From the NCBI GenBank assembly GCA_013265495.1, contig MU057796.1:372001-436000 (forward strand): a stretch of 64,000 nucleotides of DNA, given 5' to 3'. This document shows, one piece after another, positions 33,001-61,294 of the stretch. The notes beneath the pieces are model-generated. The model made no database searches. It had not been told where the DNA came from and saw only the letters and a list, made by a program, of their open reading frames with translations. Made by a program: the position numbers and the translations under genes. The stretch is from Vicugna vicugna (taxonomy: Eukaryota). Each line of letters begins with the position of its first letter. The stretch's first letter is position 1.

Positions 33001-33120
33001 GGGGGGGTGGGGATGGTATAGCTCAGTGGTAGAGTGCATGCTTAAAATGCACGAGGTCCTGGGTTCAATTCCCAGTACTTTTGTTAAAAAAAAATCTCAG
33101 AGTTTCCCTCCAAAAAACCC
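33001..33120 (+). mobile_element. tRNA-derived SINE (camelid Vic-like)
   Basis: G-rich head, Pol III box A tagctcagtgg and box B ggttcaattcc, A-rich tail. Confidence 0.85.
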
Positions 33121-40873: not shown

Positions 40874-42325
40874 CTAGAACAAATCATAATAAAAATTATA
40901 TGGAACCATCAAAGACCTAGAATTGCCAAAGCATTACTAAAGAGAAAGAAAGAGGCTGGAGGAATAACTGTCCAAGACTTCAGACAATACTATAGAGCTA
41001 CAGTTACCAGGACAGCATGGTATTGGTACAAAAACAGACATATAGACCAATGGAACAGAATAGAGAGCCCAGAAATGAACCCACAAACTTTTGGTCAACT
41101 AATCTTCAACAAAGGAGGCAAGAATATACAATAACATAGGCAAAACATTATCTGACATACATTTCAAAAATTTTCTCCTAGAAGAAATAAAAGCAAGAAT
41201 AAACAAATGGGACCTAATGAAACTTACAGGCTTCTGCAGAGCAAAGGAAACCAGAAGTAAAACAAGAAGACAACCTATGGAATGGGAGAAAATTTTTGCA
41301 AGTGAAACCGACAAAGGCTTGATCTCCAGAATATATAAGCAGCTCATACGACTCAATGAGAAAAAAATAAACAACCCAATCCAAAAATGGGCAAAAGACC
41401 TAAACAAGCAATTCTCCAAGGAAGACATACAAATGATCAATAAGCACATGAAAAAAATGCTCAATATCACTAATTATCAGAGAAATGCAAATCAAAACTA
41501 AAATGAGGTATCACCTCACACTAGCCAGAATGGCCATCATTCAAAAATCCACAAATGACAAATGCTGCAGAGGCTATGGAGAAAGGGGAACCCTCCTACA
41601 CTGCTGGTGGGAATGCAGTTTGGTGCAGCCACTATGGAAAACAGTATGGAGATACCTCAAAAGACTAGGAATAGACTTACCATATGACCCAGGAATCCCA
41701 CTCCTGTGCTTATATTCAGAAGGAACCCTACTTCAGGATGACACCTGCACCCCAGTGTTCATAGCAGCACTATTTACAATAGCCAAGACATGGAAACAGC
41801 CTAAATGTCCATCAACAGATGACTGGATAAAGAAGCAGTGGTATATTTATACAATGGAATACTACTCAGCCATAAAAACTGACAACATAAAGCCATTTGC
41901 AGCAACATGGATGTCCCTGCAGAATGTCATTCTAAGTGAAGTAAGCCAGAAAGAGAAAGAAAAATGCCATATGAGATCAATATATGTGGAATCTAAAACA
42001 AAAACAAAAACAAAAACAAAAGAACAAAGTATAGATACAAAACAGAAATAGATTCACAGACATAGAATACAAACTTGTGGTTGCCAAGGGGGCGGAAAGT
42101 GGGAAGGGATAGGTGGGATTTGAAAACTGTAGAATAGATAAACAAAATTATACTGTATAGCACAGGGAAATATACACAAGATCTTATGGTAGCTCACAGA
42201 GAAAAAAATGTGACAATCAAAATATGTATGTTCATGTATAACTGAAAAATTGTGCTGTACACTGGAATTGGACACAACATTGTAAAATGATTATAAATCA
42301 ATAAAAAATGTTAAAGACAAAAAAA
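40874..42325 (+). mobile_element. Younger 5'-truncated L1 (ORF2 C-terminus, 3' UTR, A tail) with 17-bp TSD
   Basis: ORF 41485-42051 is the ORF2 cysteine-rich domain ([14 protein letters not shown]); TSD aaga(g/c)ttatgaaaaaga at 40857-40873 and 42326-42342. Confidence 0.95.
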
Positions 42326-44760: not shown

Positions 44761-45484
44761 CTGGCAATAGATGAAAAGCTCTCTTAGATTTTCTCGAGAA
44801 AATGAGTTGTCTTCCAGATTCACAAGAGAAAGACAATGTCTAAATTCTCCTCTGCATTCACCATTTCATCAAAGACATCTTTGTTGATTCCTCAGCCTAT
44901 CTCTTGCCTTGGAATTTAATATTTTTTCACATAACCTATGATCTCTCTGTTTAATCCTCACGGGGGACAATCTATCCATGGTTAGCATTGCCAACCAACA
45001 TGTTTTTTCTCAGAATTTAAGAGCCCTGTTTGAGTACTCCAGACCTAGTGGACCAAGGGAAAGGGGACCTGTGGGTTTATTGTAGTGTTTTGTTACAGTT
45101 CAGATAGCCAAACAACTTGTGAGGAAACCTGAGGAGTAAGAACAGAAGAGATTTGCAACCCATAGTTCCCCTTCTCTGCTCACATTTTTATTTCCCATAT
45201 TTGACGTGGCAGCAATTGTCTTCACCAAACCACTTGCCTCATACGAGTCTCTTATAATTTTTCAGAAGGAGCCTATACTACAAATGAAAATCGACTAAGC
45301 ATCACTTTAGGTTTCCTGTTAGGTATACCCTCTTGTGCCTGGCGCATTTCCCAGGCCTGGCGAGACCAAGAGGAAGGTCCTAATTGATCCATAGCCCACA
45401 TGTGTTTACAGTCTTTGCCTGCCTCATGCCAGGGGTGTTAGTGGAGTTCTGCTCCATGGCCTCTCAGGCAAGCTGGTATTTCTC

Positions 45485-48400
45485 ATGCAGGCTTGGGAGA
45501 TGATACCGGCTTGGGGAGATAATGTGCGCTATGGGAGATGTGGGCTTTAGGTGATGATGCAGGCTAGGGGAGATGATGTGGGCTTGGGGAGATGAGGGCT
45601 TGGCTAGATGATGTGGGCTGTGGGAGATGACTCAGGCTTGGGGTGATGATGTGGTCTTGCGGACATGACGCTGGCTCAGGGAGATGATACGGCCTGGGGA
45701 GATGATGTGGGCCGGGGAGATGATGCTGTCTTGGGGAGATGATGTGGCCATTGGAAGATGTGGGCTTGGGGACATGATGCGGGGTCGGGGAGATCACGTG
45801 TGTTAGGTGAGATATGATTTCAGGGAGATGACGTGGGCTCGAGGAAATGACGTGGGTTTGGGGAGATGATGTGGGCTCACGGATATGACGTGGGCTTGTG
45901 GAAATGACGCAGGCTCGGGGACATGATTCTGCCTTTGGAAGATGATACGGGCTCAGAAACATGATGTGGGCTTTTGGAAATGATGTGGGCTTAGGGAGAT
46001 ACTGCAGGCTTGGGGAGACATGGGCTTGGAGAGATGATTCGGGTTGTGGCAGATGACTCGGGCTTGGGGTGGTGACGCGGTCTCGCGGACAAGTCACGGG
46101 CTCGGGTAGATAATGTGGACTTCGGGAGTTTACGGGGCTCTTGGGGAGACAATGCAAGCTTGGGAGATGATGTGGGCTTGGGGAAATGATATGGGCTTGG
46201 AGAGATGTGGGTTTGGAGACCTGATGCGGGCTGTGGCAGATGACTCGGGCTTGGGGTGATGATGCAGTCTTGCAGACTTGCCACGGGCTCGGTGAGATTA
46301 CGGGGCTTTGGAAGTTGACGGGGTCCTGGGGAGATCTGGGCTCAGGGAGATGATGTGGGCTTGAGGAGACATAGGCTTGGAGAAATGATGCCATTTTGGA
46401 GAGATGATGCAAGCTGGGGGAGATCACATGGCCTTGGGGAGATGACGTGTGCTTGAGATGATGTTGGCTTTTGGAAATAATGTGGCCTTGGGGAGATGTG
46501 GGCTTGGGGAGATGACGTGGGCTTGAGGAGATGTGGGCGTGGAGTGATGTGGGCTTGGAGAGATGATGCGGGCCACGTCATCTTCAAAAGCCCACATCTC
46601 CCCAAGACCACATCATCTCCACAAGCCCACATCTCCACAGGCCCACATCATGTCCCCAAGCCCACATCATCTCTCCAAGCCTGCATCATTTCCTTGATCC
46701 CACATCATCTCCCTGAGATCATATCTCCCTTAACCCACATGATCTCCCCAAACCTGCATCATGTCCCCAGTCCACATTTTCCAAAGCCCACATCATCTCG
46801 CCAAGCCATGTCATCTCCCTGAGCCAGTGTCATGTCCCCGAGCCCGTGTCATCTCTGTGAGCCAGCCTCATGTCCGCGATCCCAAATCATCTCCCTGAGC
46901 ACGCATCATCTTCCCAAGCCCACATCATCTCCCTGAGCCTACAGCGTGTCCACGAGACCGCTTCATCACCCCAAGCCCGAGTCACCTCCCACAGCCCGCA
47001 TCATCTAGCCAAGCCCACATCTCCCCAAGGCCACATTATTTCCAAAAGCCCATATCATCTCCAAAGCCCACGTCATCTTCCCAAGGCAACGTGATCTCCC
47101 CCAACTGGCATCATCTCTCCAAAACAGCATAATCTCTATAAGCCCACATCTCCCAAGCCTGCAGTATCTCCCCAAGCCCACATGATTTCCAAAAGCCACA
47201 ACCACATCATCTCCCCCAGCCCGCATCATGTCTGAAGCCTGCATCATATCCACAAGCCCACATCTCTCCAAGCCCACATCATGTCCTCAAGGTGACATCA
47301 TGTCCCGGAGCACACATAATCTCCCCAGGCAGTGTCAGCTCCCTGAGGCAGTGTCTGTCCCCGAGCCCGTGTGATCTACGTGAGCAAGCATCATGTCCGT
47401 GATCCCAAATCATCTCCCTGAGCCTGCAGCATCTTCTGAAGCCCACATCTCCCCAAGCCTGCATCATCTCCCCAAGCCCGCATCATCTCCTGAAGTTACC
47501 TCATCTCCCAAAGCCTGTGTCATCTCCCTGAGCATATGCATCTCCCTGAGCATGTGTCAGATCCCCAAGCCAGCGTCATGTCCCCAAGCCAGCATAATAC
47601 CCAGAGGCCATGTCATCTAAGCAGGCCCGTGTCATCTCCCAGAGCCCACATAGCTCCCTGATCCGGCATAATTTCCCCGAGCCACAATCTCCCTGAGCCC
47701 ACATCTCCCCAAGCCCACATCATCTCCTCAAGCCCAAATCATCTCCAAAGCCCATGTCATCTCCCCAAGAGCCCCATAATCTCCCAAAGTCCGTGTTATC
47801 TCCCCGAGCCCACGGAATGTCCACGAGATCGTGTCATCACCCCAAGCCCAAGTCATCTGCCACAACCCACATCATCTCTCCAAGCCCACATCTCCACAAG
47901 CCCACAGTATCTCCCTAAGCCCACATCATTTCCAACAGCCCACATCATCTCCACAAGCCCACATCTCCCCAGGCCCACATCATGTCCCCAAGCCCACATC
48001 ATGTCTCCCAGCCTGCATCGTCTTCCTAAGGCAGCGTCACGTCCCTGAGCCTGTGTCATCTCTCCAAGCCTGCGTCACTTCCTTGAGCCCACGTCATCTC
48101 CTTGAGCCCACGACATCTCACTGAGATCATATCTCCCCTAACCCACATGATCTCCCCGAACCCGCATCATGTCCCCAGCCCACATCTTCCAAAGCCCACA
48201 TCATCTCCCCAAGACAGCATCATCTCCCCAGCCCACATCATCTCCCCAGGCCATGTCATCTCCCTGAGGCAGCATCATGTCCCCGAGTTCGTGTCATCTC
48301 CGCAAGCCAGGATCATGTCCGTGATCCCAAATCAACTTCCTGAGCCCGCATCATCTTCCCAAGCCCACATCATCTCCCAAGCCTGCATCATCTCTCCAAG

Positions 48401-49819
48401 CCCCCATCGCTCCAAGCCCCCATCTCCTCAAGCCCACGTCATCTCCCCAAGCCCACATCTCCCCAAGGCCACATTATTTCCAAAAGCCCATATCATCTCC
48501 AAAGCCCATGTCATCTCCCCAAGAGTCCCATAATCTCCCAAAGTCCACGTTATCTCCTCGAGCCCATGGAATGTCCACAAGATCGTGTCATCACCCCAAT
48601 CCCGAGTCATCTGCCACAACCCACATCATCTCTCCAAGCCCACATCATGTCCCCAAGCCCACATCATTTCTCTGAGCCCCCATCCTCTTCCTAAGGCTCT
48701 GGGAGATGATGTGGGCCTGAGAAGATGTGGGCTTGTAGCGATGTGGGCTTGGAGAGATGATGCGGGCTTGGGAGATGATGTGTGCTTGAGGAGATGATGT
48801 GGGCTCGGGGAGATGTGGGCTCGGGGAGATTGTGGCTCAGGGAAATTACGCAGGATTCGGGAGATATGTAAGCTCCGGGAGATGAAACCGGCCTGCGTAG
48901 ATGATGTGGCCTCTGGGTATTACACTGGCTTGGGGACAAGAGGCAGGCTCGGGGAGATGACACGTGCTGAGGGAGATGACATGGGCTTTGGGAGATGAAG
49001 CAACTTTAGGAGATGATTCGAGCTTGGGAGATGATTCGGGCTTGTGGAAATGATGCGGGCTTGGGGAGATGGTGTGGGCTCAGGGAAATTTGGGCTTTGA
49101 GAGATGATGCGGGCTGTGGCAGATGACTCGGGCTTGGGGTGATGACGTGGTCTCGTGGACATGACTTTGGTTCAGGGAGATGATACGGCCTGGGGAGATG
49201 ATGTGGGCCAGGGAGATGATGCTGTCTTGGGGAGATGATGTGGCCATTGGAAGATATGGGCTTGGGGACATGATGCGGGTTCAGGGAGATCATGTGTGTT
49301 AGGTGAGATGTGATCTCAGGGAGATGAGATCCGTGGGCTCAAGGAAATGACGTGGGTTTGGGGAGCTGAGGTGGGCTCGCGGATATGACATGGGCTTGTG
49401 GAAATGACACAGGCTCGGGGACATGATGCTGCCTTTGGAAGATGATACGGGCTCGGAAACGTGATGTAGGCTTTTGGAAATGATGTGGGCTTAGGGAGAT
49501 ACTGCGGGCTTGGGGAGACGTGGGGTTTGAGAGATGATGCGGGTTGTGGCAGATGACTCGGGCTTGGGGTAGTGACATGGTCTCGTGGACATGTCGTGGG
49601 CTCGGGGAGATAATGTGGACTTTGGGAGTTTACAGGGCTCTTGGGGAGACAACGCAAGCTTGGGAGATGATGTGGGCTTGGGGAAATGATATGAGCTTGG
49701 GTAGATGATGTGGGCTTGGGGAGATGTGGGCTTGGAGACCTGATGCGGGCTGTGGCAGATGACTCGGGCTTGGGGTGATGACGTGACTTCAGGAGATGAT
49801 GCAGGCTTAGGAGATGATA
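45485..49819. repeat. Minisatellite array of a degenerate 19-bp unit (GGGGAGATGATGTGGGCTT, with 16-bp variants), with higher-order repeats and an internal inversion
   Basis: G-rich strand is on + at 45485-46571 and 48697-49819; C-rich complement is on + at 46572-48696. Confidence 0.97.
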
Positions 49820-50721
49820 GTCCTAGTCTTTCTTATAGTTCCACTTGTCAAAATTCCTCAAAATTCTTGGCATGGTTCTGGAATATCTAGTATCCAGCAA
49901 ATAATATATTTGGCCTTCTTTTTTAAAAAAAAATTGCATTTTACTAGGAATCTGAAAAAGGGACTAGGAGAGTTAGACATGTTCAAATTTGCTCTTTTGT
50001 TCAGAATCCTAAGTAGGAAATTACAAGTTACCATTAGGTAACAGTGAAAAGTAGACTATAACTTTTGTAATTTTCCAGACACAATGTTCTAATGTTACCA
50101 TGTAATAGTTACATCGATGCATCAGGGCAGATTTGTGTTTTGGTAAGGTTCTTGCAAAAACTGTTCACAGAGACTCTGTAAATTCAACAGTAGATGTTAG
50201 TTGGAGAGTTTATTCCCATCAGAGACTGGAGTCTGAGTATTAGATGTGCAGGAGGGAGAAACTAGCATAAATGCCTTTAAACTGGCTTCCTTGGAAAGGC
50301 TTTGCTGAGATGAGCAATTCTATTTAGAATGACTGCTGCTCATCTTTCTACTAAGATAATCATCCAATGGCAACACGAAAAAGCAGATGTAGCATTTGAA
50401 GGGACATTCTGCTTTTTGAACTCTGAATGCTCTTGAACTCCAGTATGACTCCCAGGGAACCTGTAAGTTAAAAAACAATCACCTTGAAATTCTGGTATAA
50501 TGTGAAGAGCTACAGGAAGCTGAGTGCCTGACTTTTACCAAAGAGAAGATCTGAAATCTAAGCATCATATAAATGGGAATTTTTGCTTCCTCAGTTGTCT
50601 TCCATATAGTCTCTTGCCTCTTTGCTAAATATCAAAGATATTTATGCTTAAACAAATGTTGTCTCCCTCTCAGTGCATCCTCTCCTTCTGGCAGGGAAGT
50701 CATCATGCTGAATTGGTGGCA

Positions 50722-59709: not shown

Positions 59710-60430
59710 CAATATTTCTTTGAATTTGATAAACTGATCCTAAGATATATGTGGAAGAATGAAGTGTCAAAAGCAGCCAAAATAATTTTGAAGAAAAACT
59801 ATACAAAGGAGGGAGTAACCTTGCAGATGGCAAAACTTACAAATATGCTTTAAGAAATGAAATATGTTATTCACAGAATAAACAAATAGACCAGTGGCTT
59901 GGTATGGATAGCTCAGGATGTGAGCCACGAAGATAAGGGGATTTGGCATATGACAGACTTGGCATTACATATCAAAGTGTGAAAGATGAATTAATCCATA
60001 CATGATATTTGGACAATTAACTATCCATGTGGTAGAAAATGAAATTAAAACATGATACAGAACGTTTTAGGTAGATTGAAGATCTCAATGTTAAAAGCAA
60101 TACTTTAACTTTTATAGGAAAATATCTTTATTATCTTGATATAAAATAGAATTGTTTAATTAAGAACACACACTTAAGAGACAACACATCTTAGTGGAAA
60201 AAAATGAGATATGTGGTTATATTAAAATTATCATTTTCTTTTGTTCAAAACCAAATATCAATAACAAAGTTTAAATATAAGCCACAGGTGGAGAGAAGAT
60301 ATTTGCAAATCATATAACCAACAAAGAATTAGTATCCAGAATATAGAAAGGACTCTTGAAAATATTTAAGGAAAAAACTACAACATCTAATCGAATAATA
60401 TTCATAGAGTAAATACTATGGAAATTTATT
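59710..60430 (+). mobile_element. Old sense L1 ORF2 fragment, continuing at ~61312-61910
   Basis: ttgataaactgatcctaagatatatgtggaa; gagaagatatttgcaaatcatataaccaacaaagaattagtatccagaatata. Confidence 0.85.
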
Positions 60431-60447
60431 AAAAATTTAAAAATAGA

Positions 60448-61294
60448 CTCAGCATCACTAATTGTCAGAGAAATGCAGATCAAAACTACAATGAGATATC
60501 ACTTCACACCAGCCAGAATGGCCATCACTGAAAAGGCTACAAATGATAAATGCTGGAGAGGGTGTGAAGAAAAGGAAACCCTCCTGCACTGTTGGTGGGA
60601 GGGTAAATTGGTGCAGCCACTGTGGAGGACAGCATGGAGTTTCCTTAAAAAACTGAAAATAGACCTACCATGTGATCCAGCAATCCCACTCCTGGGCATA
60701 TATCCAGAGAAAAATAAAATTCAAAAAGGCACCTGCACCCCAATGTTCATAGCAGCACTATTTACAATAGCCAAGACATGGAAACAACCCAAATGTCCAT
60801 CAACAGATGACTGGAAAAAATAGAAGTGGTACATATATACAATGGAACATTACTCAGTCATAAAAAAGAATAAAACAATGCCATTTGCAGCAACATGGAT
60901 GAATCTGAAGATTGTCATTCTGAGTGAAGTGGGCCAGAAAGAGAAAGAAAAATGCCATATGACATCTTTTATATGAGGAATTGAAAAAAATTATAACAAT
61001 AATGACACAAATGAACTAATGAACTAATTATTTTGATTTCTTAAATATGTGTAAGCACATTTGACTGTCCTTTATGATTGGATTACCATATTCTGTTGAT
61101 TCTTATTTTGTAGTTGGCTTTATTCCCTTGATAACTATGTAAGTTTAAAAAGCTAAAGATCTAATCTGTTCTTAGAAACAATAATTAGTACATATATGTA
61201 AACTAAAAAATGTGCAGCATACTGTATATATGTATTTACATGCAATATAATGTGTCTCTGTAATAATTCTACCTAATAAAACTGAAAAAGGAGA
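60448..61294 (+). mobile_element. Chimeric retroinsertion: L1 ORF2 end (60448-~61030) plus ~250 bp non-L1 sequence with AATAAA and A-rich tail
   Basis: ORF 60473-60823 is the ORF2 cysteine-rich domain; 17-bp TSD with one mismatch at 60431-60447 and 61295-61311. Confidence 0.75.

Follow-up and report, generated by a model that had tools for sequence, protein, structure and literature searches.

The stretch studied here is 64,000 nucleotides of the Vicugna vicugna assembly (GCA_013265495.1, contig MU057796.1, positions 372,001 to 436,000; the whole stretch is called the window, and lies on scaffold C841). It contains an array of a 19-bp minisatellite within which the polarity of the repeat reverses and then reverses back. 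The same two junctions are found once more in the assembly, in an array on scaffold C84, where they occur in circularly permuted order. From the comparison of the two arrays we think that the window array was probably laid down with the flip already inside it.

The array is 4.3 kb in length and comprises ~236 degenerate units between 45485 and 49818. Over 238 parsed rows the unit is 19 bp in 157, 18 bp in 36 and 16 bp in 29. Its parts are as follows, with positions numbered within the window.

45485..49818, no strand assigned: the whole 19-bp minisatellite array, Tandem Repeats Finder consensus GGGAGATGATGTGGGCTTG, a member of a dispersed family
45485..46573, plus strand: arm A, G-rich, collinear with the 3′ part of segment Y on C84
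46560..46587, plus strand: junction 1 (J1), best break after 46573 or 46572 (1-bp ambiguity), second copy at C84:395005-395028
46574..48694, minus strand: segment B, of opposite polarity, 2121 bp
48678..48709, plus strand: junction 2 (J2), best break before 48695 or 48696, second copy at C84:396462-396493
48695..49818, plus strand: arm C, G-rich, its start corresponding to the 5′ part of segment Y on C84
45493..46262, plus strand: terminal direct repeat, copy 1, 88% identical to 48988-49781 at an offset of 3495
48988..49781, plus strand: terminal direct repeat, copy 2, pairing with 45493..46262

On the plus strand the array is G-rich over 45485-46573, C-rich over 46574-48694 and G-rich again over 48695-49818. 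Runs of three G number 65 and 69 in the two arms with none in the middle, and runs of three C number 126 in the middle with none in either arm. The counts switch at both junctions and contigs bridge the junctions, and thus the strand flip described in an earlier note on this DNA is genuine. The junction letters quoted there are present in the sequence, and reverse complementing 46572-48696 yields both of the 19-bp units that it gave. The C-rich strand of the array also contains long frames without stops, which result from the composition of the unit.

Contigs from four public sequencing runs (four of the 24 listed, with four organism labels and from four studies) were mapped on 45000-50300. 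Run X1, the best match, may be the source of the assembly itself, and the search of the runs is blind to relatives diverged by more than a few per cent. In each of the four runs there is one contig with a variant at 46584 that lies 81-84 letters from the contig end, so that the contig bridges J1. Contigs of run X6 covering 46491-46667 and 48638-48819 cross J1 and J2, respectively, and this is the one run of the four in which J2 is explicitly bridged. A contig of X1 extends just ~22 bases beyond J2, and X2 has depth at J2 with no piece among those listed. Contig cover is absent at 48677 in X13, which proves nothing, and over 49779-50300 in all four runs; neither gap is used as evidence. No reverted joint was found among the 15 of 17 joints and 32 of 1094 pieces listed for these runs, there is no contig across both junctions among the matches listed, and none in the four runs covers the entire array. 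Both copies of the terminal repeat are covered by contigs of X1 with zero differences. Each run differs from the window at 14-54 places, and at three positions (46584, 45061 and 47151) all four differ from the assembly, by two substitutions and one inserted C that may be assembly errors or private variants. Spanning reads were the check for an artefact suggested in the earlier note; with J1 bridged in every run and J2 explicitly in one, there is no artefact on present evidence.

A permuted second copy on scaffold C84

A search of the 2.03-Gb assembly with each junction pattern gives exactly two matches, one in the window on C841 and the other on C84, and none for a reversed-pattern control; a third copy of either junction is absent from the assembly. 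The inversion is therefore not single in the sense of being unique to this locus, as had been supposed. Both second copies fall within one array (locus L016), on a different scaffold and at an independent location. That array is about 86-91% identical to the one in the window, with unrelated flanks. Comparing tiles of the window with all fetched loci, 48 of 72 match C84 better than any of the 19 others, with seven ties and 17 worse.

The similarity runs through the junctions. An alignment crossing J1 pairs 45562-46855 with L016 4485-3233 at 81% over 1310 bp, and within arm A the segment 46302-46573 is identical to C84 at 238 of 271 positions. At J1 itself, 219 of 249 positions agree on the A side and 26 of 29 on the B side, beyond which the two diverge; just ~14-30 bp of the B side are common to the C84 copy. 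At J2, with 100 bp taken on each side, 170 of 197 positions are identical, and the start of arm C (48695-49100) matches the 5′ part of Y at 333 of 370.

The blocks of L016 are X(+) Y(-) Z(+). On the opposite strand the order at C84 becomes Z-J2-Y-J1-X, and the order in the window is Y(3′ part)-J1-B-J2-Y(5′ part, then overlap). The marker order is circularly permuted between the two arrays, with the direction kept. On its G-rich strand Y runs from the start of arm C, through the block shared by A and C, to the end of arm A, and the outer arms A and C of the window are thus parts, overlapping one another, of the segment found inverted at C84. The other arms correspond less simply. B and the right arm Z of C84 share blocks of 85-90% identity in a different order, and a third array (L027 2955-3798, on scaffold C12293) supports the arrangement of B as ancestral for one adjacency and that of Z for another. 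L027 is an 840-bp array, a third member of the subfamily without the junctions; it is collinear with B over ~46900-47400 of the window (score up to 94 per 100 bp), and also with a block in the C84 arm that is missing from B.

The flanks of the window array are single-copy, and those of the C84 array (3.1 and 2.7 kb) match the window in interspersed-repeat pieces only, away from the array. We looked for a segmental duplication of the flanks between C841 and C84 and found none. As the flanks are unrelated, segmental duplication does not account for the copy. Among the best 22-24 candidate regions scored in the genome search there is no third copy of Y, the next best match being at most 74%, and a dimer of the inversion-bearing block is absent from the assembly. 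The presence of the same junctions in permuted order at C84 indicates that the inversion is older than the copying that links the two loci.

Arms A and C share a direct repeat of ~790 bp that flanks B, and this repeat is as diverged from C84 as its two copies are from each other. In the well-aligned core the identities among A, C and Y are 480/522, 460/505 and 460/507, with private sites numbering 19 in A, 20 in C and 26 in Y. Non-CpG differences among the three are 19/448, 19/433 and 27/435 (4-6%). By this comparison the terminal repeat is about as old as the split from C84, and one event of over-replication at insertion would explain both. With a substitution rate of 2 × 10⁻⁹ per site per year, 4-6% non-CpG divergence is equivalent to roughly 10-15 million years. 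The copying would long predate the split of the four sampled organism labels, and the estimate is near the split of the two camelid lineages, placed at 11-25 million years ago in PMC13751797.

Breakpoints and balance of the inversion

We scored 169 cut pairs with a model whose training set was the array outside the junction regions. The best pair, 46573/46574-48695/48694, has a score of -98.4 and the next best -114.5. The cuts at 46571/46572 and 48696/48697 proposed in the earlier note score -118.1, ~20 bits below the best pair, and so the breakpoints are better placed slightly inside them. The best pair generates consensus GGGC cores (found in 35 of 66 units scored), whereas the earlier pair generates rare GGCC cores (two of 66). 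The GGCC break sites thus come from where the cut was drawn. We rejected a GGCC break site, which is ~20 bits worse than GGGC at both the window and C84, and the best breakpoints in the C84 copy independently fall in the same phase.

Register itself cannot locate the breakpoints, since every symmetric shift (46572+k, 48696-k) leaves both units 19 bp in length. Looking for inverted homology at the breakpoints, as would be left by recombination between inverted repeats or by long microhomology, we find only 1 bp on the in-register diagonal. The 3-bp gcc/ggc microhomology reported previously exists as a match, but it is one diagonal off the in-register one and is therefore incompatible with the claim of a 19-bp register. 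Under a paralogue-based reading the microhomology at J2 is 3 bp, GCC/GGC. Junctions that are in register and have little homology are consistent with end-joining or template switching, as had been suggested, and not with recombination between inverted repeats.

Reverting both joins restores the 19-bp register of the units, and that both joins are in register favours a balanced event. We also scored the continuity of the joins against paralogous higher-order blocks, with position-matched controls from the interior. Continuity at join 1 is 0.71-0.76, compared with an interior median of 0.91-0.94 and 0.68-0.69 for random in-phase joins, and just 4-8 of 105-110 interior control points are as low. 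Join 2 gives mixed values of 0.71, 0.78 and 0.90, the C84 joins are low too, and a separate set of 27 controls gave the same outcome. In all three of the closest specific paralogues of B's start, a GCTGCC-type unit comes before it in place of the end of A. The end of A has four closest paralogues, and these continue differently from the reverted join. Under that reading whole units would have been lost or gained at the breaks. An alignment of 182 bp over reverted join 1 (46433-46612 with 46745-46925) was considered as proof of a clean inversion, and the position-matched controls gave it no support. An un-inverted join 1 is absent from the assembly; there are three hits with three mismatches, none of which is the join.

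A restored register of the unit is thus no proof of a balanced inversion, since the higher-order context breaks off across reverted join 1. Nor is it confirmed that the inversion was clean, given the low continuity of the reverted joins with paralogous higher-order blocks. We regard balanced end-joining and unbalanced double template switching as about equally probable.

Routes to the permuted copy

On balance we lean towards a reading in which the flip occurred in an ancestral array, a circle was then looped out, and ~1.2 turns of that circle, opened inside Y, were inserted here. In the first step ~1.5 kb of an ancestral 19-bp array (Y, which at C84 is still inverted in one piece) would have flipped once. 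The GGC of the unit would be the site, with end-joining or two template switches as the chemistry and 1-3 bp of microhomology; the junctions themselves are observed directly. In the second, in-register recombination between the un-inverted arms would have generated a circle of ~3.5-4 kb bearing both junctions. In the third, the circle would have been opened inside Y, copied for ~1.2 turns and inserted into unique DNA at this site, for which the permuted order and the terminal repeat are the observed basis. Opening inside Y combined with ~1.2 turns would divide Y between the outer arms A and C, with ~790 bp present in both, and what were once the outer arms would appear here as the 'inverted' middle B. 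Later deletions, duplications and conversions at the level of the unit would have shuffled B and the C84 arm separately. Taken alone, the inversion is an old and ordinary accident, and nothing points to a function. We propose no function for the inversion-tagged array, which is most likely neutral.

C84 has extra sequence on both sides that is not collinear with the window, part of it a tail whose units are very degenerate, and in its arm X a paralogous block runs on right up to J1. These features make C84 look more like the donor. Several observations weigh against this account as a whole or in part. B also continues a paralogous block, to within 5-14 bp of J1, and only 14-30 bp beyond J1 are common on the B side, so that the direction of copying is loosely constrained. 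Arm A departs from Y over its first ~75 bp and arm C over its last ~40 bp. B and the C84 arm Z are not collinear, and at least two further rearrangements are therefore needed. Complementary end phases, a proposed signature of a circle, are not enriched in the family: the phases are complementary within 2 bp at three of 14 family loci where ~3.7 are expected, with an overlap of 2 bp in the window, and we rejected them as a family-wide signature. Finally, the A-B-C arrangement, in which one block occurs twice and flanks another, fails the false-positive filter of Takahashi and Innan. The overlap fits overrun of a rolling circle, but also tandem duplication plus deletion. We considered also a 21-bp near-identical repeat at both ends of the array as a target-site duplication and rejected it, as it occurs inside the array (with one mismatch) and exactly in locus L028.

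The main alternative, which we consider unlikely, would reach the same order with no free circle. Unequal exchange between the un-inverted arms would give a chromosomal head-to-tail dimer of the inversion-bearing block, and the window array would be either an internal piece of the dimer that strand invasion or gene conversion carried to a break, or what remained once both outer parts had been deleted. The permuted order would be the same, as would the star-like ages of A, C and Y. Such a dimer is a recognised mimic of circle-mediated duplication (PMC7188851), and interlocus conversion is discussed beside extrachromosomal circular DNA (eccDNA) as a route of satellite spread (PMC7403614). The assembly contains, however, neither a dimer nor a third copy of a junction or of Y, and the in-place version needs two extra deletions that erase every outer remnant.

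Still less probable is that the window was the donor. The inversion and the A/C repeat would have arisen here, and recombination between A and C would have sent a 3.5-kb circle into a pre-existing C84 array. The A/C direct repeat, with its offset of 3495, would release exactly a circle carrying both junctions, and B retains blocks that are absent from the C84 arm and are backed as ancestral by L027. Yet Y is not a C-then-A chimaera, since A-like and C-like sites are not clustered along it (18 runs compared with 20.5 expected, P = 0.26), and so the A/C repeat could only have formed immediately ahead of the circle. Moreover, C84 and L027 retain a block W that is absent from B, and Y holds a ~165-bp duplication that is absent from C.

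The earlier note had proposed a single balanced inversion in place, at GGC(C), after growth of the array; the flip at C84 would then be an independent hot-spot event, which we find very hard to believe. The model has in its favour that both reverted joins are in register, with a rough chance of ~(2/19)² if the four ends were random. But two independent flips would need to coincide to the nucleotide, within one and the same higher-order block, at each junction, and 86-90% identity continues across both junctions to C84. GGCC cores are disfavoured by ~20 bits, and the un-inverted version of join 1 is lacking. As judged by the shared junctions the in-place model is largely refuted, and the inversion probably did not follow growth of the window array. 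That the flip was created at a repeat during assembly is the least credible explanation, for which there are the N gaps inside family arrays on other scaffolds and the want of a listed contig spanning J1 and J2 together, and against which stand the bridged junctions, the want of a reverted joint among the 15 of 17 joints listed and the diverged second copy on C84.

Duplication through a circular eccDNA intermediate was defined by Takahashi and Innan in 2020 (PMC7188851), who cite cases in cattle and yeast; A-B-C is discarded there as a possible false positive due to tandem duplication plus deletion (Results, Fig. 4A). As in the cases described there, the copy lies at an unrelated site with the direction the same and the marker order rotated; at the window short-read contigs bridge J1 in all four runs and J2 explicitly in one. 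The present case differs in that only a ~4-kb minisatellite was copied, with two strand-flip junctions as its markers. The copy shows terminal redundancy (more than one turn), a pattern that the paper excludes as ambiguous, and it is old (8-9% diverged).

For the euchromatic satellites Rsp-like and 1.688 of Drosophila, spread by reintegration of eccDNA or by microhomology repair has been proposed (Sproul et al. 2020, PMC7403614). Reintegration of circles and interlocus conversion are put forward there as routes, and likewise for the Cast satellites in Tribolium (PMC11610590). The signature given for circle reintegration is that the first and last truncated monomers make one whole monomer (PMC7403614). 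From what these articles describe, the 19-bp family resembles Rsp-like/1.688 and Cast in forming dispersed short arrays at unrelated sites, with higher-order blocks moved between loci and foreign fragments captured at some junctions. Unlike them it is a mammalian 19-bp minisatellite in which complementary end phases are not enriched. The main texts of PMC7403614 and PMC11610590 contain no word starting with 'inver', and an internal inversion is not used there as a marker of order. The alpaca satellites VpaSat01-20 (PMC13751797) are also tandem repeats, and would come from the same animal group, but their monomers are 1.8-8.5 kb compared with a unit of 19 bp. Two 10-mers of the unit have no hits in the supplement of that paper within the first 400 letters of each monomer, and one 10-mer has none in its main text.

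How tandem repeats reach new sites is a long-standing question, to which circles are the usual answer proposed. Rotating a tandem array normally leaves its appearance unchanged, so that its route to a new site cannot be read from the sequence. Here two unique strand-flip junctions mark the array and reveal both rotation and terminal redundancy, and so the choice between a circle and dimer-and-deletion becomes directly testable. Strand flips inside head-to-tail satellite arrays are known, for example in the higher-order arrays of human alpha-satellite, where they are in place, centromeric and far larger; the flip described here, in contrast, is common to two dispersed arrays. Array-internal flips and circle-borne spread of satellites are thus known kinds of event, and the permuted second copy is a useful testable case. 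We found no description of the 19-bp family, or of an inversion-tagged permuted minisatellite, in the literature searched, which covered journals outside subscription.

The dispersed family and the rest of the window

Counts for the family are lower bounds, as the genome search scores the best 22-24 candidate regions. The 19-bp unit gives at least 78 matches in 22 candidate regions of the assembly. Among the 20 fetched loci most flanks are unrelated to each other, and both orientations are present in two, L016 on C84 and L018 on scaffold C5059. Four groups of arrays lie within segmental duplications (L020 with L033; L021 with L025; L017, L029, L030 and L031; L022, L023 and L024). Array lengths within these groups are very different, such as ~2200 and 290 bp for L020 and L033, which points to large expansion or contraction of the array after segmental duplication.

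On C5059 the array at L018 (3254-4586, and L045 3409-5520) comprises a plus-strand array, a 190-bp GC-rich foreign spacer and a minus-strand array. The spacer matches C10307:354075-354259 at 80%. The L018 array adjoins the edge of a duplication of 93.5% identity, the other copy of which (C5059:1027908 onward) has no array. On the same scaffold L018 2954-3244 (~714.5-714.7 kb) and L019 4642-4939 (~1665.1-1665.4 kb) are the halves of one L1, ~950 kb apart in the same orientation, each adjoining a 19-bp family array. On four intact L1 copies the flank to the left of L018 and that to the right of L019 map head to tail, with gaps of ~10 bp. This suggests a large insertion or rearrangement that was patched with arrays at both ends, or a misjoin. 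Taken together, the split L1 and the array-less copy of the duplication suggest that arrays were inserted at breaks, in line with the insertion proposed for the window array, with an assembly misjoin as a possible alternative.

We put forward tentatively, and with a good deal of doubt, that the 19-bp repeat is a camelid minisatellite not described before, and that it moves with no help from a transposon. It would do so by way of looped-out circles, rolling-circle copying in the germ line and capture at breaks, including the ends of large duplications and of the ~950-kb C5059 segment. If this were true, the pair of arrays on C84 and C841 would be a rare mammalian sequence record of an array that was permuted and over-replicated in transit.

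A second family array is present on the scaffold of the window, ~416 kb downstream (L032, C841:837557-838470); it is uniformly in the minus orientation and is 66-69% similar to the window array.

A scan of the window with Rfam gave one tRNA-like match (RF00005, 54.4 bits) at 33012-33083, outside the array. This has an A-rich tail and looks like a tRNA-derived short interspersed element, presumably of the camelid type. Fragments of the 3′ end of L1, which mark the genome as mammalian, are present at 41100-42050 and 60400-61020; they contain broken ORF2-like frames and are 82% identical to each other.

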